64,000 bases of DNA, taken from assembly GCA_030428125.1 (NCBI GenBank), contig JAUIBF010000001.1, forward strand, positions 14,102 through 78,101, in the 5' to 3' direction. Both the position numbers and the translations under genes were made by a program. Of the stretch, positions 3,419-56,436 are shown piece after piece; position 1 is the stretch's first letter, and each line of letters starts with the position of its first letter. The notes under the pieces were generated by a model. It had not been told where the DNA came from. It did no database searches and saw only the letters and a program-made list of their open reading frames with translations. The stretch comes from a bacterium. Lineage in GTDB: Bacteria > Patescibacteriota > Saccharimonadia > Saccharimonadales > SZUA-47.

Positions 3419-4195
3419 ATGACTATTATTGAGGCGATGTTACTTGGGCTGGTACAAGGGTTAACAGAATTCATACCTGTTTCTAGTTCAGGGCATTTGA
3501 TAATTGCACATGAATTATTTGATACCACAAGTGATAGTTTGGCTTTTGATGTAGCGCTGCATATAGGAACTTTGCTCGCACTACTACTATTCTTTAAAAA
3601 AGACATTATGAAATTACTAAAAAACTTGTTTAAGAAAAACAAGGATGGAGCTCTGGCTAGATTAATCCTATATGCCACTATCCCGGCTGTAATAGTTGGT
3701 TTGTTATTCGGTGGAATCATTGATGATCACGCTAGGACTACGCTAGTAGTAGCGTGTACGCTAGGGGTAGTAGGAGTAATTATGCTTCTGTCAGAAAAGT
3801 GCGCTAGCAGTAGTGTGGATAAGGATAACGTCCCGTCGACGAAACAGGGGTTAATTGTAGGTTTTGCGCAGAGTTTAGCATTAATCCCTGGAGTTTCTAG
3901 GTCAGGCGCAACAATGACAGCAGGCTTCTTTGTGGGAATGAGCAGAGAGCAAGCTGCAAGATTTTCGTTTCTGCTATCCATACCTATAATTGCCGGATCA
4001 GCTGCAGGAATAATGATTAGGGATGCAGACTCCCTGAACTTTGATTCAACTTTATTAATAGGAGTTATTACTGCATTTGCAAGTGGGCTGTTCGCCATTA
4101 AATTTATGTTACGAATAATTGGCAAGGTTGGTTTGAAACCTTTTGCATACTACAGAATCGTGATGGCTGCAGTGGTAGCGTTGTTTTTAGTGTAG
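3419..4195 (+). CDS. uppP: undecaprenyl-diphosphate phosphatase
   Basis: The N-terminus LLGLVQGLTEFIPVSSSGHLII and the later PGVSRSGATM motif are BacA/UppP signatures. The protein is polytopic. Confidence 0.9.
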   Translation: MTIIEAMLLGLVQGLTEFIPVSSSGHLIIAHELFDTTSDSLAFDVALHIGTLLALLLFFKKDIMKLLKNLFKKNKDGALARLILYATIPAVIVGLLFGGIIDDHARTTLVVACTLGVVGVIMLLSEKCASSSVDKDNVPSTKQGLIVGFAQSLALIPGVSRSGATMTAGFFVGMSREQAARFSFLLSIPIIAGSAAGIMIRDADSLNFDSTLLIGVITAFASGLFAIKFMLRIIGKVGLKPFAYYRIVMAAVVALFLV

Positions 4196-45254: not shown

Positions 45255-45353
45255 CATAGTTTATAAGTCTAGACCTGACGTAGACTGATTGGATACCGGA
45301 TTTTAATCTAGTAGAAATAACAGATAAATATACTGATATTGGAAATCGGATTT

Positions 45354-45375
45354 AAATCGGAGTTAACTCCGATTT
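45354..45375. terminator. bidirectional hairpin between convergent genes
   Basis: AAATCGGAGTTAACTCCGATTT is a perfect palindrome. Confidence 0.6.
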
Positions 45376-45377
45376 AA

Positions 45378-45962
45378 TTATCGGCGGCGATAGTTACGCC
45401 AACTAGATCTACGATAATCATCCGAGTCTCTTTCGTCAGATTCAGACTGCACATCACGGTTTCTACTTCTGCGCCAGTCTCTCCAACCTCTATCTTCTTC
45501 GTAGTCATCATTTTCTGCTTCCCACTCATCTAGTCTATCTAGAGCTTCTTCGTATCGCTGTTCGGCTTCTTCGATTTTCTCGGGTTCAACTTCTTCTGCT
45601 TGCTGGAGATCCTGTAGTTCTGTAGAGGTCTCTTCCAGAATCATTTCAATTTCTTCACGTTCAGTTTCGCTAGCTTGCTCACTTGCCGGTGCGTTGTTAT
45701 TCTGGCTTTCAAAAAACCCTTGTCCTATGAACACAAAGCTTGCTACTGCGAAAGTTGCTGCCATGCTGGTTGCAAACCAAAAAAAGGGACTACGAGTAGA
45801 ATCTTTAGACACTCTGTCAGGCACGCTTGCGATATTTTTCTTAGCGGATTCGGACAGGCCTTTAGTCCTCATCGAACCTAAATTCTCAGCCAATTTAGCA
45901 AGTTCTTCGATATCTTCATCGCTCGCACCATTGCTTTTTAGCTGTTTCTTAAGCTCACTCAT
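45378..45962 (-). CDS. putative anti-sigma factor (single-pass membrane protein)
   Basis: It overlaps the ECF sigma gene by 8 nt. It has one central TM segment and an acidic/Arg-rich C-terminus. Confidence 0.45.
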   Translation of the reverse strand: MSELKKQLKSNGASDEDIEELAKLAENLGSMRTKGLSESAKKNIASVPDRVSKDSTRSPFFWFATSMAATFAVASFVFIGQGFFESQNNNAPASEQASETEREEIEMILEETSTELQDLQQAEEVEPEKIEEAEQRYEEALDRLDEWEAENDDYEEDRGWRDWRRSRNRDVQSESDERDSDDYRRSSWRNYRRR

Positions 45963-46443
45963 CGGATAAATCCTTCTTCATTTTCTTCAATGCCCTGTAC
46001 TGAACAACCCTAACATTCGATTCACTCATGCCTAAGGCCTCAGCAGTTTCTTTAACCGAGTATGCCTGCATAAAACGTAAGTTTACAACAGACTTCATAT
46101 CTTCTGGTAAACGAGATATAGCTCTGACAGTTCGTTTTTGTTCCAGCTTTTTATCCATAATTTCCTCTTGTGTCGGTGCATCATCGGCAATTTCGATTTC
46201 CTCATCTAGGGGAATAGCTTTTTTCTTGCGCCAGTGATCTGTAAGCGTGTTTCGAGCTATTGCATATAGCCAACCACGTGGATGTTTAAAGTCGTAGTTA
46301 TCGATATTTTTCCAGGCTTTAGTGAAAGTATCTGCAGTTAAATCTTCTGCTAGTTCCATGTCACGGACATGTACAAATAGGAACCGGTAAATGTCATCGG
46401 CGTATTCGTTGTACATTTTGATATACCTCCGTCTTGCTAGCAT
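45955..46443 (-). CDS. ECF-type RNA polymerase sigma-70 factor
   Basis: Region 2 is DLTADTFTKAWKNIDNY...WLYAIARN. Region 4 is the HTH YSVKETAEALGMSESNVRVVQYRALKK. Confidence 0.85.
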   Translation of the reverse strand: MLARRRYIKMYNEYADDIYRFLFVHVRDMELAEDLTADTFTKAWKNIDNYDFKHPRGWLYAIARNTLTDHWRKKKAIPLDEEIEIADDAPTQEEIMDKKLEQKRTVRAISRLPEDMKSVVNLRFMQAYSVKETAEALGMSESNVRVVQYRALKKMKKDLSDE

Positions 46444-46581
46444 GAGTTATTTAATTATCACATACAGGAGTCGGGTTTTTATATTTGATTTTAGATGGAA
46501 ATCATCGATTCCTGCATTTAATGTAACGTTTTAATTTGTGTTTCGTTACATATAGCGTCAGTAAATCTAAAGAGGAGAATT

Positions 46582-47268
46582 ATGACAATATCCAAAAACA
46601 TTAAAAAACTGATAGTTATTGCGATACTCGCAACGGCAATAACTACACCAGTAGTAGTTCGCGTGAACGCTCAAGAAGAGCCTTCAACAGAAGACACTAC
46701 TACATTAGAAGAAACTGAAGTAGAGGAGACCGAAGAGGCTCCGGTGGAGGAGACAGATGAAGGAGAAGTTGAGTCAGATACTACAGAGGAAGAAACTACT
46801 GTGGAGACTGAAACTGAAGAGGTTGTGGAAGACACAGAAGAGCCCGTTGTAGAAGCAGTCACTACTGATGTCTCTATCGAAGAAGCAATAGTTATAGCAC
46901 GAGCTGAACACCCAGACGTTGAAGTCGTGATGGCTAAAGTAAAGCTTAAAAAACTAGACAGTGAAAAAGTTTATAAAGTAGTCTTTGCTGACGGCTGGCG
47001 AATTTATGTGAGTGCCGTAGATGGTGAAATAGTCAGAATCAAAGACGGTAGTAACAAGAAAAAAGAATGTAGCAAACGAGGTCAACGAGCTGTAGAATCT
47101 TGGAGAAGCAACTACAAGAAAAGAAATAAGCGAAATCACCACGATCATCGCCGAGGCTGGTCTCACCACAAACATTGGGATAAAAATAACGATTCCAGTG
47201 ACGATGAACAAGAAGAGGTAGAAGAAACTAACGAAGAAACAGAAGAAGTCGTCGAAGAATATAACTAA
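46582..47268 (+). CDS. secreted PepSY-domain protein with E/T-rich acidic linker
   Basis: A signal peptide is followed by EEAIVIARAEHPDVEVV...VYKVVFADGWRIYVSAVDGEIVRIKD. Confidence 0.6.
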   Translation: MTISKNIKKLIVIAILATAITTPVVVRVNAQEEPSTEDTTTLEETEVEETEEAPVEETDEGEVESDTTEEETTVETETEEVVEDTEEPVVEAVTTDVSIEEAIVIARAEHPDVEVVMAKVKLKKLDSEKVYKVVFADGWRIYVSAVDGEIVRIKDGSNKKKECSKRGQRAVESWRSNYKKRNKRNHHDHRRGWSHHKHWDKNNDSSDDEQEEVEETNEETEEVVEEYN

Positions 47269-47411
47269 ATAGTGTCTCTAGTAGAATCGCCTCGAGTTAT
47301 ATAACCGGGGCGATTTAAATTTATTATTCTGAATTTATACACTGGAACAAAAATACTTAACGTATATAATTAGCAATATTAATAAAACCATGGTGGGGTA
47401 AAGGAGCAAAT

Positions 47412-48086
47412 ATGCCAAGCTTGGTTCTGCCAGAAGAAAATCAATTCGAAGTAGCCCTCCACTTACACGAGACCGGGAGGTTTGGAATTCATGAAAATCC
47501 AGATGACTTCATTACCTTAAAAAGTGGAAGAATATCACCACACTACCTAGACCTTAGACCTGGAATATCTAGTCCAGACACTCGAAGAATTGTTGGAGGT
47601 GGACTGCTTGATCTTGCGGAGATGGGTGAAGACTTTTTGCATATTGTAGGGACTCCGGAAGCATTTACCTCTTATGCTGCTTCAATGGCAGATATGTCAG
47701 AGAGAAGTTTATTGCAGCCGAGGGTGGCACAAAAGCAAAGCGGGAACAAGGTTCCAATTTTAGGTACATATAGTGATTGGGATACAGTCGCAGTATTCGA
47801 TGATGTAGTTACAGATGGCAAAACTAAGGTAGACACAATTGAAGGGTTAGAGGCTGCAGGTCTAATCGTAGCTGGCTAATATGTGGTGCTTGACCGGCAA
47901 GAAGGTGGGGTGCCACAGGTAGAGCAGGAAACAGGTATTGTTATCGGTTCAGTTTTGCGAGTAGCTGATATGGTGCGTACGTTACGAGCAGAAAACGTCT
48001 ATTCTGAAACGCAATTCGATAATGTAAAACAATACCTCGAACAGTATGGAGACGAGGGCGTTGCAGCATCCATGGGAACGGCATAA
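47412..48086 (+). pseudogene. pyrE: orotate phosphoribosyltransferase interrupted by one in-frame TAA (47877-47879)
   Basis: ORFs 47412..47879 and 47883..48086 are in the same frame. The joined sequence reads VAVFDDVVTDGKTK...GLIVAG*YVVLDRQEGG, spanning the PRPP-binding loop and the LDRQEGG motif of OPRTases. Confidence 0.7.
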
Positions 48087-48116
48087 AAACTAGTAACTTT
48101 AAATCGGAGGAACAGA

Positions 48117-48881
48117 ATGTTAAAAGCAAACGTAGGACAACTCTCACCAGATCAAAGAATAATTATTGCTTATGATGGCATGAACTTAGACCAGGCAGCA
48201 GAGATGCATGCCGGATTTAATGAAGCTGGGTTTCATCCTATAGCTAAAGCAAACTCGCTTGCCACAAGACCGGGGCTTGATGCAGTAATGGCTAGGTTTA
48301 CAGACCTAGGATCACAAGTCATGTTCGACCCGAAACATCACGATACAGAAAACACGATGTACAACTACATAACAGAGGATGTCGCTGCAGAACCAGTGGC
48401 GCCGTTAATGGTTACGCTGCATGCATCGAATGGTACTGATGCACTTAGAGAAGCAACGCGTGGTAGGAATGAGTCTGTAGGAGCCGATTCTGAAATACTT
48501 AATTTGCTTGGTATTACAGTGCTAACTTCACTAGACGATGATGATGTTGTAAGTGTTTTCGGTGAAGGCGCGACTGCTGAATCAAAGTTCGTGGAGTTCG
48601 CACACCGAGCTCATGAAGCAGGCTGGCAAGGCTTAGTTTCTTCAGGAAAAGAGCTTGTAAAAGGTTATGAATTCAGAGAGCTAGACGGATTGCTGAGAGT
48701 TATTCCTGGTATCAAGTTGCCTGGCAATGACGACACAAAAGGTCAGAAACGACTATATACTCCTGATGTTGCAATCAGTGAAGGAGCGGACTTTGTTGTA
48801 ATTGGTCGCCACATCACAGAGGCAGATTCACCAGTTGCTGCTCTGGAGAAGGCAGTCGAGTTGGTTGATAAGGCAGCTTAG
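48117..48881 (+). CDS. pyrF: orotidine-5'-phosphate decarboxylase
   Basis: FDPKHHDTENTM (DxKxxDIxNT-like) and PGIKLPG...RLYTPDVAISEGADFVVIGRHI. Confidence 0.7.
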   Translation: MLKANVGQLSPDQRIIIAYDGMNLDQAAEMHAGFNEAGFHPIAKANSLATRPGLDAVMARFTDLGSQVMFDPKHHDTENTMYNYITEDVAAEPVAPLMVTLHASNGTDALREATRGRNESVGADSEILNLLGITVLTSLDDDDVVSVFGEGATAESKFVEFAHRAHEAGWQGLVSSGKELVKGYEFRELDGLLRVIPGIKLPGNDDTKGQKRLYTPDVAISEGADFVVIGRHITEADSPVAALEKAVELVDKAA

Positions 48882-49070
48882 TATGATTGTTGTAGGCGCG
48901 TAGGTAGCTTTTTAGGCTTTTCGGTTTACTATATACGAACCCTTTACTTACAAGTCAATCTGAAATGACTTCATTTACTGCCTTGCGCGGGGTTTGCGAG
49001 TTTTGCCTAAACGTAATCGTGATGATTCATTGTATACTTTTAGGTATCAGAGTAGAGGGAAACACACAGG

Positions 49071-50330
49071 GTGAATGCCGGTAAACTGAAAATAATCATT
49101 AGTAAATACAAATTATCAGTTTTTATGGTTATTTTTGGAGTGATAGGTGTAGGGTTCCTAGCATTTTCATCTGCTGCGTCTGATTCGGTTATTGTTGAGT
49201 CTGAAAGTACATTTATCACTGGCGATGCCAGTGTCTTGTACGATGTAAATACCTCCGAAAATCAATACGTAGAGTTCGGATCTAGTGACGGCCAGACCTG
49301 GGAGCAAGCTCTCTTGGCTGCTACTGAAGCCACAAATATTCCGCCTGATTGTCACCAGGACGAATCGACCATATCATCAGCCAGGACTTCGGAGTGTCGG
49401 GTCATTGCCCAAGTAGGTATGAATATAATGCGTGATTGGTATATTAAAAACACCGGTTTCGAAAGTTATTTCGACCCTGATCTAAACAGATTTTTGACAG
49501 ATTCAGACCTAGACCCGTATCCGGGTGGTGAAATAACGGAAAGCAATATAACGCTTGATAGAAAAAAATTCTCCGGCCCAATAACTATAGTCGGCAATAA
49601 TGTCACCATTACAAATTCCAAAGTGGAAGTAGGGGGCTATTCATACGGGATAGACTTAAGGCAGGGCAGCAATTACACAATTGACAGAGTTACTGTTGAA
49701 TACGTTGGCCAACTTGGTCCGACTAAAGCCGATCGTGGCAACAGGGCTGTGTATGCAAATAAGCCAGGCGTAGTCAGAAGGGTAAAGGCGCTGGATGGTT
49801 TTAGTTCAGGTTTTCGAGCGGAGGGCCAAGGGGCTATGGACATACTTTGGGAGTACAATTTCCTAGATAGACTTTACGTTACCGATCTTAACCCCGATGG
49901 ATCAACAGCAGGAGACCACAACACATCAGCAACGCTAAGGTCAAACTTAGGTGCTTCGCAAGGTATTAGTGGCGTTACATATCGACGAAACATGTTCTTA
50001 GATGGAACATCAGCCGCATTTAGCTTTTATGATAAAGAACCAAGTGTTACTCATAGCAATTTATTATTCGAAGAAAACATTTATGATATTTTTCATACAT
50101 CTAACTCTGACGGATCTGGTGGCCGAGGTGTTAATTATTGTATAAATTCGGGTAACAGTGGTAACTACAGTAACGTAAGGTACATAGGGAATGTTTTTGG
50201 TCAATCTCAAAGACCTACAAATAAAGGCGATGGAAATTGGTACCGCAAATGTGGCTCGTCATTTCCAAGTTCGGGTAATCAAGGCGATTATTCATCAGGC
50301 AATAGGTATATCGACGGCAATCCTATTTAG
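49071..50330 (+). CDS. secreted protein, probable right-handed beta-helix
   Basis: GTG start and an N-terminal TM/signal segment. The protein is G/N/S-rich with repetitive strands (ITIVGNNVTITNSKVEV). Confidence 0.45.
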   Translation: MNAGKLKIIISKYKLSVFMVIFGVIGVGFLAFSSAASDSVIVESESTFITGDASVLYDVNTSENQYVEFGSSDGQTWEQALLAATEATNIPPDCHQDESTISSARTSECRVIAQVGMNIMRDWYIKNTGFESYFDPDLNRFLTDSDLDPYPGGEITESNITLDRKKFSGPITIVGNNVTITNSKVEVGGYSYGIDLRQGSNYTIDRVTVEYVGQLGPTKADRGNRAVYANKPGVVRRVKALDGFSSGFRAEGQGAMDILWEYNFLDRLYVTDLNPDGSTAGDHNTSATLRSNLGASQGISGVTYRRNMFLDGTSAAFSFYDKEPSVTHSNLLFEENIYDIFHTSNSDGSGGRGVNYCINSGNSGNYSNVRYIGNVFGQSQRPTNKGDGNWYRKCGSSFPSSGNQGDYSSGNRYIDGNPI

Positions 50331-50344
50331 AAGATCCTGAAGTT

Positions 50345-50689
50345 TTACTTATTGGACGTAAAGTCAATTCTTAGTTGGGCCATTAGTTCGACGGCACGTT
50401 TTGGGATGGGGCTATCGACCGTGAATCTAACAACGCCTTTACTATGGTCTAACTCCGGAAATTCTTCGATAACTACTGATACAATTCGTGGATCAAACGG
50501 ATAGACATTTAATCCGTGCTTGTTATCGCTGAAACCAATCAAGGGCTTGTTGTTAAGTTTGAATGCTGGCAGGCCGTAGCTCAAGCCTTCGACTGCATCC
50601 GGTGCTAGTTCTATAACGGTATCAATCACGCATTTTTTTAAACACTGTGCCTCATCACTATCAAGGCTACTCAAATAATCACTAAACAT
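50345..50689 (-). CDS. DUF1801 (YdhG-like) domain protein
   Basis: LSYGLPAFKLNNKPLIGFSDNKHGLNVYPF is typical of DUF1801. Confidence 0.6.
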   Translation of the reverse strand: MFSDYLSSLDSDEAQCLKKCVIDTVIELAPDAVEGLSYGLPAFKLNNKPLIGFSDNKHGLNVYPFDPRIVSVVIEEFPELDHSKGVVRFTVDSPIPKRAVELMAQLRIDFTSNK

Positions 50690-50705
50690 ATCCTAATTGT
50701 AGCTC

Positions 50706-50734
50706 AAAATAAAAACCCCATCCATGGGATGAGG
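50706..50734 (-). terminator. orphaned Rho-independent terminator (probable original tRNA-fMet terminator)
   Basis: In minus sense: CCTCATCC-cat-GGATGGGG followed by TTTTTATTTT. It starts 9 nt after the left copy of the tRNA 3'-end repeat. Confidence 0.6.
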
Positions 50735-50742
50735 TTCATATT

Positions 50743-50751
50743 TTGGTAGCG
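50743..50751. repeat. left direct repeat (attL core) TTGGTAGCG
   Basis: Identical to 56176-56184, the last 8 nt of the tRNA plus 1 flanking nt. Confidence 0.6.
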
Positions 50752-50862
50752 CGCCTAAAATCGGATTGGAACCTAATCTGTTCAGAGCTTAGCCGCTGGA
50801 AACAGCAATTAGAGGTGGCACAAGATGTTATGTGGACTGGCAGTTAGGAGTGGAACGGATTC

Positions 50863-52767
50863 TTAAACTAGGTTCTTTTCTATGTAGTCTTTAAGGTCTT
50901 TCACGAACTTAGCATAGTCAGACGTAATGTCGTCATACTTAAAGCTATCAAATACTGCCGTCTTAAGCTCTTTAAAGATCGTTTTGATCTCGTCACTGTT
51001 TCTGCCGTCGCTGATCAGCTGGTCTTTGATGTATTTAAGCTTGTTATGTGCCGGCAGGCTTGAGGCGCTTACAGTGAACTCGTTGCCTAGTTTTTTAGTT
51101 ACTGCGCTAACTGAACTAGAAAGAAGCTCATTCTTAATAAAGTCTTCGCCAGTTATCGCATTAGTATTTTTTGAAATCTGCTTGTAGGTCAGCCATTTGA
51201 TTTCATGACCCCACTCATTGTAGTTTTTCTGATTATCCTTAGCCGCTGTATCGTTATCACTTACGATGAGCCCCTTTCTCTCAGCAGCTTCAAGCGTAGG
51301 CACTAAGGACCTGAACGAAGGTGCCCCGGAACCATGAACAATACCAAGCTGGCTAAAGAACTGTTTGTGGTTTTTCGTAGTGTACTTCTTAAATAACTGC
51401 TTGTCTCTCCAGCCCTCAAAAAGCAGGTTTACCTCTTTTAGATGTTCGAAAGTAGAATAGTTAATTGCATTGAATATAACTTCTTCATCTACAATATTTC
51501 CTTCGTTTCCTTCCTCTAAACTAGTTACTTCGCGATCCTTTCTTACAATATAGTGCCTTGAAATATCATGTCTATCGATCATAAAAATAGAGTGAGTCGA
51601 GTAGACTACCTGATTATTTGTTGATACTTTCAGCAACTCATCCCTAAAGTACCTTGCCCCGGAGGGGTGAAGGCCGATTTCTGGTTCGTCAATCAGTATA
51701 AGCGCGTCCTGGAGCTTACCAGTATGTGAGGTGCTCGAAATACTAAGCAGGAAAGCAATGAACTTCTTGAACCCGTCACTCCTGTCTTTGAATTGGAAAT
51801 CGTTCTCTTCAGATATGCTGCACTGTATTTTTGTCCCGTCCATTTGCAAAGTAAAACTAACATCACCATACTCTTTCCAGACAGTTGCTAAATACTCGGT
51901 CGCTTTTTCGTGGACTCTTTTTAGTAGGTTGTTTAAGCGTGTTGGACCTTTTTCTTTTTCTGCTTTAATAGTGCTCGGTATATCTTCAATCCCCGCCAGA
52001 TTAAACATGTTCTTTAGTGAAAGAAACTTTTTAGGATCTTCCATGAACTTGGCTAAATTAACGTGAGACGGCAAGAAGTCCTGCTCTTCAAACTCCCAAA
52101 AAATAACTTCAGGCAGATTGTCCTTCATGTACTGGATTAAGCTGCCGTGAACAAGATCTGAAAAGTTGTCAAAAGTTGCTACCGCGAGATAGCCCTCAGG
52201 AATTTTTTGGTGTTCTTCTTCTGACAACTTGGCTAGCTTTAATGCGCCTAATGTTGTCTTTAGTCCTTCTTCGTCAGTATACTCAAAGTCTTCGGGGCAT
52301 TTTGAGGTTATCTTATACCAGCCGTCTGTAATGTCGTACTTCTCGTCATATGTAAAATATTGACCAGATTTACTTTCTTTAGGGACATTAACCTTGTATT
52401 GGAGGTGTTCAAATGTTCTTATGAAACCGTATACAGTAAGCGCCTCGTCACCTATACTCGCAATTTTAGCCCTTGGCCCGGCTAGGATTTGAGCATTTAA
52501 AATATCCCTAACTGCCTCGTGATCCTTCTTCTCAAGCTTAAACTTAAACTTGATGCACGATTCATCAACCTGCGCCTCATCTCCTAGAGGCTGCCTCTCG
52601 TCTGACTTGTGGGGTGCGTATTCTGGTGAAAGTGTTGCAAGGGCGTTTAGTACGTTTGATTTGCCCGACTCATTAATACCAACTAAAACTCTGCAGCTTG
52701 GATCAAATGTAACAACCTGATGTTTTATAGACCTGTAGTTTATGATTGTTGATTCTACTAGTTTCAT
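50863..52767 (-). CDS. OLD-family / PARIS-like ATPase-TOPRIM protein
   Basis: Walker A GINESGKSNVLNAL and Walker B LILIDEPEIGLHP. The C-terminus LLFEGWRDKQLF ... LIVSDNDTA fits the TOPRIM E-G and DxD motifs. Confidence 0.6.
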   Translation of the reverse strand: MKLVESTIINYRSIKHQVVTFDPSCRVLVGINESGKSNVLNALATLSPEYAPHKSDERQPLGDEAQVDESCIKFKFKLEKKDHEAVRDILNAQILAGPRAKIASIGDEALTVYGFIRTFEHLQYKVNVPKESKSGQYFTYDEKYDITDGWYKITSKCPEDFEYTDEEGLKTTLGALKLAKLSEEEHQKIPEGYLAVATFDNFSDLVHGSLIQYMKDNLPEVIFWEFEEQDFLPSHVNLAKFMEDPKKFLSLKNMFNLAGIEDIPSTIKAEKEKGPTRLNNLLKRVHEKATEYLATVWKEYGDVSFTLQMDGTKIQCSISEENDFQFKDRSDGFKKFIAFLLSISSTSHTGKLQDALILIDEPEIGLHPSGARYFRDELLKVSTNNQVVYSTHSIFMIDRHDISRHYIVRKDREVTSLEEGNEGNIVDEEVIFNAINYSTFEHLKEVNLLFEGWRDKQLFKKYTTKNHKQFFSQLGIVHGSGAPSFRSLVPTLEAAERKGLIVSDNDTAAKDNQKNYNEWGHEIKWLTYKQISKNTNAITGEDFIKNELLSSSVSAVTKKLGNEFTVSASSLPAHNKLKYIKDQLISDGRNSDEIKTIFKELKTAVFDSFKYDDITSDYAKFVKDLKDYIEKNLV

Positions 52768-52857
52768 ATTTTGTAGCTTTTGTCATATTCCCACCACTTG
52801 GTTACAGTTTACATCTGCCACCTCTGTTTTACAAGATTAGCACTCAATACGTAGCCA

Positions 52858-52922
52858 GTACGCGCGCAGACATGTGTGTGCGCAGAGCATGTTTTGTAAG
52901 CAATACGTGCGCGTGTGCGCAG
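52858..52922. repeat. GC-rich alternating purine-pyrimidine tracts with a 10-nt direct repeat
   Basis: Alternating tracts at 52858-52868 (11 nt), 52870-52884 (15 nt) and 52903-52921 (19 nt). GTGTGCGCAG occurs at 52876-52885 and 52913-52922. Confidence 0.75.
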
Positions 52923-52927
52923 GTGAT

Positions 52928-53398
52928 CTATTGGTAGATATTTTCTACCGCATACATAGCAGATTCACCATTTGTGCCATGAATCAATTCAACAAAGCTC
53001 GGATTAACATCCAATAAGTAGCCCCAGCGCAGCATGTAGTCGTCAGCTTCTTTCGTACCAATCCTGCTATTTATGTGTCTAATTTCAGGAAAATAACAGA
53101 GATACAGCCACCGGAAGTGCAGTTTTGAGCCACGTGGAGCATTCTGGGCTTGCGTGTCGCGCTTTCTGACGAAGTATGTAATGAAAGCTAGGTCTGCAGC
53201 CTTCTTTCCGTCTGGGGTCATAGAATGTTTGACGTCCATGTACGTAATTGGCATGCCCAGCATGCTCTTTATGCGAATTTTGGATACATGCAAAAAGTCG
53301 AGCCTGGATTCTTTAGGTATGCGCTCGGTCCTGTTCATGCCAAGCCAGTGGAACTTCAGCGGCTGATATTTACTGACAAACTTGTCAAATGATTGCAT
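52928..53398 (-). CDS. hypothetical protein (element cargo)
   Basis: 156 aa with no recognised motif. It starts 3 nt after the upstream stop. Confidence 0.5.
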   Translation of the reverse strand: MQSFDKFVSKYQPLKFHWLGMNRTERIPKESRLDFLHVSKIRIKSMLGMPITYMDVKHSMTPDGKKAADLAFITYFVRKRDTQAQNAPRGSKLHFRWLYLCYFPEIRHINSRIGTKEADDYMLRWGYLLDVNPSFVELIHGTNGESAMYAVENIYQ

Positions 53399-53401
53399 GC
53401 C

Positions 53402-53806
53402 TTAGAGCTGATGCATTATCCGAATAAACACGATAGCAGCTACTATCGGAAATAAGAAACCTGCGGCTGATGTGATTGTGAAAAATACTAATTTTGGCAC
53501 ATCATGTAACGCTCCGGGTTTTTCTTGTCCAAGCATCATGAGTGCGCCGTCACGGTCGTTCATAGCATGGATTGATTTGATCTTTCTTAGCTTTAGTAAA
53601 AAGAACGGTATTGATGCAAATGAGATAACAAATATACCGGGCAAAAATAACAAAACCGTAGACAATGAAACGAAAGTGCCAGTTATGATGCTGTAGATCA
53701 AACCTGCAGTTAACCACCAAAAGATAACACTCTTTGAATATGATGTTGCCGACATGTTGTATTCATCAGCATCAACACCTGCGACCTTCTTTTTCTTTTC
53801 TGCCAT
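53402..53806 (-). CDS. small 3-TM membrane protein (element cargo)
   Basis: The start is the ATG 53804-53806, which has a GAAGGAG SD (the ORF track extends to 53905). It has three hydrophobic helices. Confidence 0.5.
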   Translation of the reverse strand: MAEKKKKVAGVDADEYNMSATSYSKSVIFWWLTAGLIYSIITGTFVSLSTVLLFLPGIFVISFASIPFFLLKLRKIKSIHAMNDRDGALMMLGQEKPGALHDVPKLVFFTITSAAGFLFPIVAAIVFIRIMHQL

Positions 53807-54206
53807 TGCTACTCCTTCGTTAATTAGGTGCGAGCAATCAAAAAGCCCGTCACGAGCGACAGCCTTTCGACCATCCATCACCGTTTCCAGCAATGACATC
53901 AACAAGAAGTACTCATGACGAGCTGTTTCTTGTTGATGATTTGATGACCATGCCGGCAGAACCGGGTTAGGTCTAGTGGATTAACCACTTGAAGACATTA
54001 TATCTTGTTTGTGTACAATGACTACCAGTAAATATACTAAATAACATAAGCATTATCCTTGCAAATTTGTGTTCGGCCACGTATGCTGTACTTAACTGTC
54101 CCACTGATCAAGGACGAAAAAAGGATCACATCATTAACCATAAATAGTAAAGGAGATTCAAAAACAAAATATCTGCGAGGCTATAACTAATAAGAGGAAG
54201 CCGGAT

Positions 54207-54476
54207 ATGAAAAAACTACATAAACATTCAACTGCATACCGAATGCAGTACGTAACTAGTGACAGATTTTTAGTAGCTGCACTGATTAGTAATGGGCTTA
54301 GTCCAGAAGTAATTGCTAAGACGAAGGCAGGCGTCATGTTCTATACATTTAAGCGCAGTCAGCGTTTTACGAGACTACTAGAACGTTACGAAAATAACAC
54401 GCTCAAGGTGAAAACAGACTACTACGATCGAGTTTGCGAGATGCATTACGAACCCTTCGATTGGGGTAATGACTAG
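54207..54476 (+). CDS. DUF5659-like small protein
   Basis: The TSDRFLVAALISNGL...FYTFKRS...Y pattern resembles DUF5659 proteins common in phage and CPR elements. An AAGAGGAAG SD lies upstream. Confidence 0.4.
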   Translation: MKKLHKHSTAYRMQYVTSDRFLVAALISNGLSPEVIAKTKAGVMFYTFKRSQRFTRLLERYENNTLKVKTDYYDRVCEMHYEPFDWGND

Positions 54477-54594
54477 CAAGGAGGCTCGTAAGCTCCTTGG
54501 CAAACAAGCGCAGGAAATGTCCGATGATGAGGTACAACACTTCATCGAGTTTCTTGTTGCCTGCGCCAAGGAGCGCCTTGGAGTCAAGGTGTAA
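54469..54594 (+). CDS. 41-aa ORF upstream of the recombinase (possible directionality factor)
   Basis: Hand translation gives MTSKEARKLLGKQAQEMSDDEVQHFIEFLVACAKERLGVKV. It overlaps the upstream stop. The functional suggestion rests on position only. Confidence 0.3.
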   Translation: MTSKEARKLLGKQAQEMSDDEVQHFIEFLVACAKERLGVKV

Positions 54595-54642
54595 AAAGAG
54601 CCAATAACACTATAAAATAGTTGTAGTGAAAGGTACAACACT

Positions 54643-56220
54643 ATGAATAATCAAAGAACCAAGAAAGCCGTTGCATATATTAGGGTTTCAAGCACTATGC
54701 AAAAGGACAACGAAAGTCCTGATACGCAACACGCAAAAATTCAGGAATATGCTAACTCAAATGGGATTGAGATTATCAAAGACGGCTGGTTCTTTGATGA
54801 AGCAAAAAGTGGTAAAAATGCAGACCGTGAAGAGCTGCAGAACATGCTTAAGTTTGCTCTTTCGCGGAGAGACAAGATTGATCACGTAATAGTTTACAAA
54901 ATGAGCCGCGCTTCTAGGGACCTGTACTCATACATCACACAAGTGCAAATGGCACTAAGATCAAAAGGTATCACAATGAGATCCGCCACGGAGCCAATTG
55001 ATGATACAAAAATGGGAAGGTTCATGGAAAACTTGTACGTCATACTTGCCCAGCTCGATAATGACAGCAAAGCAGAATATACGCTCGATAACATGAAATC
55101 GCTTGCCGCGCAGGGCTATTATCAACACTCGCCACCGACTGGATACGATAACGCTAAGCTGCCTAATGCTATGGGGAAGCCAAGACCTTCGCTTAAACAA
55201 AATGACATGGCGCCAAAAGTAAAGAATGTCCTCGAAAGGTTTAGTAAGGGTGGTATCACGAAAGCCGAGCTCAAAAGATATGCCGATTCTATCGGATTGA
55301 GGAGTAGGTATGGCAAGAAGATGAGTGAAGATTCAATTAATCGCATGCTTGGCAATGCGACATATGCAGGCTTTATTAAGGATAGATTCACTGATCACAA
55401 ACAAGTAGCTGGTAGGCATGAGCCAATCATTACCCCAGAAGTTTATGAGTTAAACCAGGCGCTTCTTTACGGCAGGAACACCCGTAAAGATGAGGTACAC
55501 AAGCGTAAGAACGAGAGCTATGTACTGAAAGGAACATTGATGTGTATCGGATGTAACAACCCTTTGTACGCTTCGGCGCCACGCACTGGAAATGGTGGAT
55601 ATTCTCCAAGATATCATTGTGGACGCGGCTGTAAATCACCATCCATAAAAGCAAATATTGTGCATGAGGACTTTGAGCGTTTGCTTGATGAGCTTAAGCC
55701 TTCTGAAGGCGTGCTCAAATTGTACAAACAAGTGTTGATTCAAGAAGCCAATAAGGCACTAGGCGCTCTTAATGGCCGTATATCAGCTGTACGAGATGAG
55801 CTTGACGAGATTGCTGTAAAACGGGCTAACGGAATTGAAATGTTCGCCGGTGGAGAGTTGTCTATAGAAGAAAAGAACGTATTAATAGACAGTTTGGATC
55901 AAAAGAAGCTAGAAACCCAATTAAGACTGCATGACCTTGAGCAACTGCAGAATATTCGTGAATCTGACATAGATGCTGCGATCAACTTTATGGGTAGCGT
56001 CAACGAGCAGTGGAAGAACAGTAACTTCGATAACAGAGTTAGGTTCCAAAACATACTATTTCCTCAAGGTATTACGTATAATCTCGCCGAACAAGAGTTT
56101 GGAACCTCACAAATGAGTCCGCTTTATAGATTGGTGGAACGAAAAAGAGACTCCGGAGAGTCTCAAAAATCTTACTTGGTAGCGGGGGCAGGACTCGAAC
56201 CTGCGACCTCTTGGTTATGA
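54643..56220 (+). CDS. large serine recombinase (integrase)
   Basis: The N-terminal resolvase domain AVAYIRVSSTMQ contains the catalytic Ser region, with the later YKMSRASRD. A recombinase domain, the Cys cluster CIGCNNPLY...YHCGRGC and a coiled coil follow. The last 44 nt are antisense to the tRNA. Confidence 0.85.
   Translation: MNNQRTKKAVAYIRVSSTMQKDNESPDTQHAKIQEYANSNGIEIIKDGWFFDEAKSGKNADREELQNMLKFALSRRDKIDHVIVYKMSRASRDLYSYITQVQMALRSKGITMRSATEPIDDTKMGRFMENLYVILAQLDNDSKAEYTLDNMKSLAAQGYYQHSPPTGYDNAKLPNAMGKPRPSLKQNDMAPKVKNVLERFSKGGITKAELKRYADSIGLRSRYGKKMSEDSINRMLGNATYAGFIKDRFTDHKQVAGRHEPIITPEVYELNQALLYGRNTRKDEVHKRKNESYVLKGTLMCIGCNNPLYASAPRTGNGGYSPRYHCGRGCKSPSIKANIVHEDFERLLDELKPSEGVLKLYKQVLIQEANKALGALNGRISAVRDELDEIAVKRANGIEMFAGGELSIEEKNVLIDSLDQKKLETQLRLHDLEQLQNIRESDIDAAINFMGSVNEQWKNSNFDNRVRFQNILFPQGITYNLAEQEFGTSQMSPLYRLVERKRDSGESQKSYLVAGAGLEPATSWL
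56176..56184. repeat. right direct repeat (attR core) TTGGTAGCG
   Basis: Identical to 50743-50751. Confidence 0.6.
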
Positions 56221-56251
56221 GCCAAGCGAGCTGCCGCTGCTCCACCCCGCG
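56177..56251 (-). tRNA. tRNA-Met (CAT), initiator-like
   Basis: The reverse complement is CGCGGGGTGGAGCAGCGGCAGCTCGCTTGGCTCATAACCAAGAGGTCGCAGGTTCGAGTCCTGCCCCCGCTACCA. The 5' CGCGGGGTGGAGCAGC and the unpaired 1:72 position resemble bacterial tRNA-fMet. Confidence 0.85.
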
Positions 56252-56407
56252 TCGTCGGCATGTGATGGCGTTTGCGCCAGAACTGCCGACGAAACAAGTT
56301 CCTCGGACACTTCTGGCACCCTCGCCAAGCTGCCTCCTCTCGATTTTGTGAATCCTCTCACAAAATCGGACAAGCTACATTTATTAGTAGCTTTTAGACT
56401 GGGATAT

Positions 56408-56436
56408 ATTATACATAACAGAGGTAATATAGTCAA
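56408..56436 (-). promoter_or_regulatory. consensus sigma70 promoter for the tRNA-fMet leader
   Basis: In minus sense: TTGACT (56436-56431), a 17-nt spacer, TATAAT (56413-56408). Confidence 0.6.

Follow-up and report, generated by a model that had tools for sequence, protein, structure and literature searches.

Results

A putative integrative element at the 3′ end of the tRNA-fMet gene

The window is a 64,000-nucleotide (nt) stretch of a bacterial contig (JAUIBF010000001.1). Positions 50743-56184 read as an integrated element of 5,433 bp at the 3′ end of the minus-strand gene for the initiator tRNA, tRNA-fMet. The segment encodes a large serine recombinase (LSR, here called Int; gene int), two small proteins, a LOOT RNA and a set of cargo genes. 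We conclude that it is very probably a small integrative element that is moved by its LSR, has its attachment site attP inside int and is integrated at the tRNA-fMet 3′ end. A preliminary description of this DNA had proposed an LSR-driven insertion, through a short crossover core, between the tRNA and its own terminator. Its list of features held neither the LOOT gene, nor a surrogate terminator, nor the continuation of the int frame at the left end. Our analysis adds the proposed position of attP inside int with the tail exchange, the surrogate terminator, the targeting of tRNA-fMet and tRNA-Glu in Patescibacteria, the variable defence cargo and the link to LOOT. The features at the two ends are as follows.

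50703..50737, minus strand: native Rho-independent terminator of tRNA-fMet, host B side of attL (terminator scan)
50743..50751, plus strand: attL core, left copy of the repeat TTGGTAGCG (family-wide core TTGGT(A/T)GC)
50743..50847, plus strand: predicted detached 3′ end of the int open reading frame (ORF), P′ arm of attP (matches the C-termini of attP-form homologues)
54643..56220, plus strand: LSR (Int), integrated-state form, 525 amino acids (aa) (profile searches)
56142..56164, minus strand: predicted surrogate intrinsic terminator for the tRNA (56147-56164 in the terminator scan)
56176..56184, plus strand: attR core, right copy of the repeat TTGGTAGCG (tRNA nt 69-76 plus one flanking base)
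56177..56251, minus strand: tRNA-fMet (CAT), intact, host B′ side of attR (ARAGORN; Rfam, 62.5 bits)
Reconstructed attB junction for the host: GGGATGAGGTTCATATTTTGGTAGCGGGGGCAGGACTCG
Reconstructed attP junction for the host: GAGTCTCAAAAATCTTACTTGGTAGCGCGCCTAAAATCGGATTGG

The 9-nt direct repeat, composed of the tRNA end and one flanking base, was found at both ends where it had been reported, and nowhere else within the window. By chance, such a repeat has an expected count of 0.29, and two or more copies arose in 3 of 100 shuffles. The left boundary is validated by comparison, since the sequence shared with related elements, L009 among them, starts precisely at the left copy; the 9-mer alone would be weak evidence. 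Related loci were gathered by exact-protein look-up and a metagenome scan. Fourteen integrated loci (13 distinct, 3.2-10.9 kb, window included) share one layout at the left end, in which a host hairpin with a T-run is followed by TTGGT(A/T)GC and then by an in-frame tail. Thirteen of them are further delimited elements (12 distinct), and the hairpin and T-run lie outside the left core in 12 of these 12 distinct relatives, in agreement with the proposed insertion between the tRNA and its native terminator.

Int contains the Pfam Resolvase domain (PF00239; 5e-28, residues 9-159) and Recombinase domain (PF07508; 6.9e-07, 29.9 bits against a cutoff of 21.1, residues 188-275), and its zinc ribbon (Zn_ribbon_recom, PF13408) scored just below the cutoff (20.6 against 25.3 bits). 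This profile check of 54643-56220, suggested in the preliminary description, upheld the 525-aa large serine recombinase that reaches 44 nt into the tRNA. The zinc-ribbon cysteines C301, C304 and C326 are invariant among Int homologues, and the AlphaFold model of one homologue (P0222) has beta strands and then two long helices (356-403 and 409-450); a zinc-ribbon domain with an inserted coiled coil is present in Int. The PHROG match was 'integrase' (4.8e-73). The catalytic motif R14-x-S16-x3-Q20 is invariant across sets of 26 and 36 homologues, and the window Int keeps all family-invariant residues, including R14 and S16. Judged by its sequence, the enzyme is a bona fide LSR.

More than 300 Int homologues of ~525 aa have 52-76% identity, and the named ones come from Saccharibacteria/Patescibacteria. 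Every Int of at least 51% identity that has its 3′ end and the tRNA on the contig (>40 cases) overlaps a minus-strand tRNA-Met(CAT) gene by exactly 44 nt.

Probable attP inside int and exchange of the Int tail

In the integrated state, Int takes its last 16 residues (GAGLEPATSWL...) from the antisense strand of the tRNA gene, and the int stop codon TGA sits opposite the anticodon (U33-C34-A35). About 105 of 120 homologues have such a C-terminus, ...LVAGxGLEPxTSWL, encoded by the tRNA antisense strand. Another eight of the 120, which are 541-556 aa long, end in ...LVAQVHSNWNLILEELSRWK..., and this is the same tail as that of the stub at the left end of the window. Read in frame with the core, the stub encodes LVA followed by RLKSDWNLICSELSRWKQQLEVAQDVMWTGS and a stop codon, with an open frame of 34 codons. 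The consensus of this alternative-tail class is ...LVAQVHSNWNLIxxELxRW....

Three contigs with a long-form int (L014, L015 and L016) carry no tRNA and have terminal overlaps of 30, 127 and 127 nt. Because these overlaps equal the assembler's k or k-1, the contigs are circular paths, of 9.8, 6.2 and 4.5 kb. The circles carry the tail of the stub as the true C-terminus of Int, which argues that attP lies inside the int ORF; integration would then change the C-terminus of Int, swapping its last 31-36 codons for 16 codons antisense to the tRNA.

The alternative tail appears to be under purifying selection. Codons 10-21, which lie more than 27 bp from the core and outside a normal half-site, have a ratio of nonsynonymous to synonymous substitution rates (dN/dS) of ~0.36. 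The tail motif (W/Y)N(L/V)I..E(L/I)..RW is common to the tRNA-fMet subfamily and to a tRNA-Glu subfamily described below (~41-46% Int identity). The AlphaFold model of an attP-form homologue has a disordered linker (499-520) and then a helix (521-539), with a predicted local distance difference test (pLDDT) score of 30-45 that is uninformative on docking.

Two side observations concern the tail region. Free-form tails of L015, L016, L021, L036, L039 and L055 end in ...(V/A)YS(T)A(A/D), ...APVAA or ...APMSA; such ends recall ssrA-like degradation tags (cf. the free-form repressor of mycobacteriophage BPs), and the window tail, ...DVMWTGS, does not. The conserved left-end block stops near 50857, ~115 nt from the core. 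At 50848-50857 and equivalent positions there is a second (T/G)(A/G)GAAC motif, ~84 nt past the TGGAAC of the P′ arm, and (T/G)(A/G)GAAC/TGGAAC copies are likewise 84 nt apart in the remnant in L009. The second motif could be a further protein-binding site.

Crossover point

Identity between attL and attR spans only 5-11 nt across the family, which fits the short core that had been postulated. The strongest symmetry is the attP dyad CTTGG-T(A/T)GC-CCAAG, best centred on core positions 6/7 (0.40 against a background of ~0.22); attB is without a clear dyad. In 11 of the 13 distinct elements, attL and attR have the same base at core position 6 (A or T, corresponding to tRNA nt 72), with four A/A and seven T/T. 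The crossover dinucleotide is probably (A/T)G at core positions 6-7. On either placement of the crossover, the element supplies only tRNA nt 71/72-76 and the trailer.

Native and predicted surrogate terminators of tRNA-fMet

The tRNA sequence has 5′ CGCGGGG, a C1xU72 mismatch and an A11:U24 pair; these are what we take to be initiator determinants, and we call this tRNA-Met(CAT) an initiator by them. A promoter-like site of the gene lies at 56436-56408 on the minus strand (TTGACT-17-TATAAT, 11/12 match to the consensus). This best site is ~150 nt upstream of the mature 5′ end and would therefore imply a long tRNA leader; the leader region 56252-56436 (minus strand) holds the inverted repeat gtcgtcggca...tgccgacga.

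The native terminator, today 5.4 kb away from the tRNA, is a stem-loop at 50737-50713 (minus strand) followed by TTATTTTGAG. An 8-bp hairpin with a T-run had been reported here; it is real and somewhat longer, with 11 pairs including G-T. Next to the tRNA, 12 nt past the CCA in tRNA sense, GAGACTCtccgGAGTCTC followed by TTTTT (as RNA, GAGACUCuccgGAGUCUC and UUUUU) would form a surrogate terminator, which sits antisense within the int coding sequence (residues ...ERKRDSGESQ...) and was also picked up independently by the terminator scan. Hairpins of 6-14 bp with U4-6 were found in 36 of 37 distinct fMet-family int 3′ ends, circles included; in the remaining one, the contig breaks off within the tRNA. 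Their stem sequences differ and their distance from the CCA is constant, with hairpin and U-run ~30 nt past it; the conserved KK/EK codons of the Int linker are explained by the U-run encoded there. A single consensus structure was dropped, since the hairpins are not homologous pair by pair, and each sequence was scored by itself. The tRNA is thus separated from its native terminator as had been claimed, but the element's own hairpin makes up for the displacement. These findings suggest that the element keeps the initiator tRNA properly terminated.

Operon partners, LOOT RNA and cargo

Both small ORFs and the minus-strand cargo ORFs of the preliminary description are present, in addition to the LOOT gene.

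54207..54476, plus strand: DUF5659 protein, 89 aa, first gene of the int operon (Pfam DUF5659, 1.2e-06)
54469..54594, plus strand: conserved partner protein, 41 aa, motif EARKLLG...SDDQV...
53841..53977, minus strand: LOOT RNA gene (Rfam RF03000 at 53858-53973), including the 3′ strand of the closing helix and the U-run
53402..53905, minus strand: cargo 3, ORF of ~165 aa with hydrophobic stretches visible in the translation (ORF call)
52928..53398, minus strand: cargo 2, 156-aa protein (ORF call)
50863..52767, minus strand: cargo 1, predicted ATPase-Toprim protein, OLD/PARIS-like, 634 aa (Pfam and PADLOC)

The EARKLLG...SDDQV partner protein (41-81 aa) stands directly upstream of int in at least 11 of 18 elements. 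It had no Pfam or PHROG match, and we consider it a candidate directionality factor or regulator.

The LOOT RNA scored 70.1 bits against the Rfam gathering score of 46.4, and 123.7 bits with our own covariance model. Using nhmmer and this model, we found LOOT in 19 of 80 recombinase loci (17 distinct), the tRNA-Glu type included, usually upstream of int and divergent from it. Besides the window, these loci are L022, L029, L031, L034, L038, L041, L047, L058/59, L060, L065, L070, L073, L082, L083, L085, L086 and L089. The orphan LOOT RNA is thus a recurrent component of recombinase elements. Because L034 has no gene past LOOT on LOOT's strand, we regard LOOT as a stand-alone small RNA (sRNA). 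Among the 17 distinct homologues, 95.5% of the cells in the fold are paired, 21 of 32 pairs have double changes and 0 of 500 shuffles were as good. In this clade, the central hairpin of the Rfam model gives way to a 13-bp long-range helix with the 3′ end, which shows covariation. The LOOT motif comes from Weinberg et al., 2017 (PMC5737381), the main text of which has no discussion of it.

Promoter and terminator scans placed a LOOT promoter-like site at 54024-53997 (minus strand) and a U-run after 53845. The promoter-like site of the int operon lies at 53992-54019 (plus strand), upstream of the DUF5659 gene. As consensus matches, these two sites overlap back-to-back, each with its -10 over the -35 of the other, and use of the two promoters would therefore be mutually exclusive.

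The ATPase part of cargo 1 matched Pfam AAA_15 (8.6e-24) and AAA_21 (6.8e-20). Its PADLOC matches were Old (3.9e-30, residues 339-580), AriA (1.2e-24), ATPase-Toprim and GajA; the C-terminal part was matched by the PADLOC Old and ATPase-Toprim profiles only and had no Pfam Toprim match. These profiles make it a candidate anti-phage nuclease, with a presumed role in phage defence. Neither cargo 2 nor cargo 3 had a family match in Pfam or PHROG, and cargo 2 had none in PADLOC. Cargo 3 as called overlaps the LOOT gene; translation probably begins only past the LOOT terminator, at MAEKKKK (~53806).

Relatives of the element

In two near-identical hosts, this site is occupied by different elements: the flanks of L042 and L043 are 92-96% identical, their int genes are unrelated and the elements measure 3.2 and 7.8 kb. 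Elsewhere in the family, the cargo is type I/IIG restriction-modification with HEPN (L009), Fic (L012) or type II restriction-modification (L013, L014), and surface-type proteins also occur.

Recombinases of a sister subfamily (37-46% identity) are inserted in like manner at tRNA-Glu(CTC/TTC), which their ORFs overlap mostly by 41 or 50 nt, and by 107 nt in L054. Its loci (L052, L054, L056, L057, L060-L062, L064, L065, L067, L069 and L080) have the same alternative-tail motif at their left ends. The 41%-identity tRNA-Glu group has no obvious surrogate terminator.

L009 retains the decayed remnant of an earlier left end (LVEYVVSQWNYICKEILRW...) together with other pieces of the tRNA end, and such pieces are also found in L012. 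Ten of 43 metagenome contigs stop within 150 nt past the tRNA. The tRNA-fMet 3′-end fragments (up to 21 nt) lie at L009:124-170 and at L012:298-340 and 470, and are followed by other conserved sequence, ...CCAGGACT..cacgttccg..cccaga. This arrangement suggests a second, unrelated element type that uses tRNA-fMet, in tandem arrays with the LSR elements.

Two loci depart from the common setting. In L098, which holds the closest homologue (76%), the core TTGGTA at 3500-3560 is joined to non-tRNA DNA beside APH and ABC-F genes, and we read this junction as a secondary integration site or a rearrangement; L098 also shares a segment 76% identical to the LOOT / 167-aa-ORF region of the window. The 44%-identical recombinase at L058/L059:10001-11674, on contigs of 124 and 30 kb, has a long non-tRNA tail (LVTHVDQTWKPLLESMERIDAAVEELVQEVEE) with LOOT upstream, and may be the attP form on a larger replicon.

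Our literature search, which was incomplete, found no description of LSRs at tRNA genes, of attP within a serine integrase gene or of such elements in Saccharibacteria. We found no published description of this element family, and such absence is no proof of novelty.

Discussion

Proposed mechanism

We propose the following cycle. In the free circle, attP would lie inside the int ORF, ~31-36 codons ahead of its stop. Int would recombine attP with attB, the 3′ end of the tRNA-fMet gene, through the shared core TTGGT(A/T)GC, which is complementary to tRNA nt 70-76 and one further base. The tRNA body would then remain host-derived, and its last nucleotides would be replaced by identical ones from the element. 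The native terminator would be left 5.4 kb off at attL, and the hairpin and U-run antisense to int would end the tRNA transcript in its place. The int ORF would lose its conserved C-terminal helix, left as the orphan stub at 50752-50847, and would read 44 nt into the antisense tRNA. Between the ends, the element would carry a variable payload, often of defence genes (here the putative OLD-like ATPase-Toprim nuclease and two unmatched proteins), and a semi-conserved control region in which the LOOT sRNA diverges from an operon of DUF5659, the 41-aa protein and int.

The tail swap may alter Int activity. It might constitute a state-dependent switch, in which free Int has the conserved C-terminal amphipathic helix and integrated Int has a tRNA-encoded peptide, with a difference between the isoforms in directionality, synapsis or stability. 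Such a self-contained toggle could be tuned by the 41-aa partner and LOOT. We put this forward as a tentative idea that is rather unlikely to hold.

Weighing the alternatives

The anatomy of the element, the recurrence of this anatomy in its relatives, the circles and the occupation of one site by different elements are direct observations. Several points weigh against the integrative-element reading. The 9-mer taken by itself is only marginally significant, and the crossover is ambiguous in that L039/L040, L055 (with a split int) and L098, the secondary-site locus, part ways at or just past TTGGT(A) and so favour TTGGT. Tandem arrays could, in principle, also give rise to the circular assemblies. 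The Pfam and PHROG domain searches pointed to no protein with a role in directionality, replication or transfer. The guanine-cytosine (GC) content is flat over the element and equals that of the flanks, with no foreign signature. An empty attB for this host was not found: the nearest relative of the tRNA-adjoining purA is 73% identical, on a 2.3-kb contig without a tRNA at that position, and the next purA relatives have at most 55% identity. A scan for empty sites via purA over species-representative genomes gave only relatives of 33-35% identity, none of them close; the named relatives of this purA are Saccharimonadales. The comparison with empty sites in related genomes or bins, proposed at the outset, thus yielded none for want of a sufficiently close genome, and together with the GC content this leaves the earlier label 'recently acquired' without support. 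Finally, in the Logan assembly of ERR3428546, contig L008 (window 45348-56206) passes through attL unbroken; the integrated state thus dominates in this sample, and excised or empty forms are not abundant.

Logan contigs from the same organism end at 56206, inside the tRNA, and at 56287. We rejected population heterogeneity as the cause of these breaks, since the same contig passes attL unbroken; the break inside the tRNA is better explained by shared tRNA sequence.

The unbroken attL and the host-like GC content are also what a fixed remnant would leave, that is, an element integrated once in the same way whose recombinase is now inactive or domesticated. The integrated-state Int lacks the conserved native tail, and decayed relatives are known (L055 with its split int and the L009 remnant). 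Against this reading, the window Int keeps every invariant residue, the detached stub is still an open 34-codon frame that fits the consensus, and the 41-aa partner and the surrogate terminator are intact. We regard a remnant as unlikely, while giving it some weight. The preliminary description had called the element 'possibly still excisable'; this is plausible because all its parts are intact, but only the integrated state was assembled in ERR3428546. The copy in this host may still be able to excise. The circles assemble alone, and several independent assemblies (L016, L027, L028 and members of the P0165 cluster) yielded a circle of the L016 type, so the elements could conceivably be small plasmids or episomes that are parked only now and then in the tRNA gene. 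We find this doubtful: domain searches recognised no replication gene, ~105 of 120 homologues are in the integrated form, and a design that restores both tRNA and terminator implies long chromosomal residence.

Serine integrases are typical of temperate phages, and phage satellites are small. The preliminary description had nevertheless judged the element too small for a phage and free of capsid genes, and our searches concur. IMG/VR contained no relative of the recombinase, PHROG matches were confined to the integrase and the OLD-like protein with no structural hit among the element proteins, annotated phage or plasmid recombinases reach an identity of ~26% at best, and domain searches recognised neither structural nor packaging genes on the complete circles (4.5-9.8 kb). 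A degraded prophage or phage satellite is therefore very improbable. We give practically no credence to a chance repeat beside a resident invertase or resolvase unrelated to the insertion: two 9-mer copies did arise in 3 of 100 shuffles, but homology starts exactly at the repeat, 12 other distinct elements are built alike and circles exist.

The meaning of the tail exchange is a separate matter from the integrative-element reading. The swap could be a neutral side effect of the placement of attP within the end of int, with isoforms that behave alike and a direction set by a separate factor only. A directionality factor alone suffices for characterised LSRs, the tail is modelled as an undocked helix past a ~20-residue linker (AlphaFold; pLDDT 30-45), and the tRNA-encoded tail is not free to evolve. 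On the other side stand the motif kept across the fMet and Glu subfamilies and the dN/dS below 0.5. The extreme C-terminus of phiC31 integrase contacts its recombination directionality factor (RDF), and C-terminal Int-RDF fusions are functional and reverse the direction; because of this precedent, a regulatory role for the swapped tail is plausible. We place the neutral by-product a little short of an even chance.

Implications

The integrative-element reading would extend serine integrases to tRNA 3′ ends, a target class classically of tyrosine integrases. It would show how an essential initiator-tRNA gene can be occupied harmlessly, with the 3′ end restored and a terminator brought by the element, hidden antisense in a coding sequence. 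Two natural Int isoforms would offer a testable route to the control of directionality without, or beside, a directionality factor, which is relevant to integrase engineering. The family would be a frequent carrier of defence genes in Saccharibacteria/Patescibacteria, a group with poorly known mobile elements. It might also yield a genetic tool, the site being present in every genome of this group. The orphan LOOT RNA gains a genomic home, and, if the switch idea is true, a function as a regulator of mobile-element state.

Comparison with known systems

Int has the same domain order as the LSRs of phages, integrative and conjugative elements (ICEs) and cassettes (Bxb1, phiC31, A118/LI, TP901-1, SPbeta SprA, SCCmec Ccr), with a zinc ribbon that bears a long coiled-coil insertion. 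LSRs of phages and ICEs likewise use short attachment sites with few identical bases and have int at the end of the element. The window family differs from them in sequence (at most 26% identity to annotated phage or plasmid LSRs, with PDB matches to catalytic domains only), in its target, which is a tRNA 3′ end and not a protein-coding gene, in the predicted placement of attP within the int ORF and of the terminator of the target gene inside int, and in having no recognisable directionality factor.

P4-like and lambda-like tRNA islands also restore the tRNA 3′ end, have the integrase beside the tRNA, a repeat at the far end and variable cargo, and show repeated use of the site in the form of tandem remnants. 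In contrast to these islands, the recombinase here is of the serine and not the tyrosine type, the repeat is 5-11 nt and not tens of nucleotides, and the terminator of the tRNA appears to be replaced as well.

Among the cargo, cargo 1 fits the PADLOC Old, AriA, ATPase-Toprim and GajA profiles of the OLD, PARIS and Gabija nucleases. It differs from PARIS and Gabija in that both parts appear to be fused in one protein, with neither GajB nor AriB beside it. The RNA of the window scores above the gathering score of LOOT (RF03000), and its context in a recombinase element is new as far as we checked.

Integrases of SSV1-type archaeal viruses also have attP within int, and integration into a tRNA gene partitions int. 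They are tyrosine recombinases that are split into two large parts, and the integrated form is inactive. In the family described here, only the C-terminal tail would be detached, and the catalytic and DNA-binding domains are all kept.

A parallel in logic to the proposed exchange is the integration-dependent immunity of mycobacteriophage BPs, in which attP likewise lies in a coding sequence and the free and integrated products differ at the C-terminus: integration removes 33 C-terminal residues of the repressor (PMC4557955). There, a repressor is split, the integrase is of the tyrosine type and the loss of a degradation tag has been demonstrated; here, it would be the serine integrase itself that exchanges ~31-36 residues.

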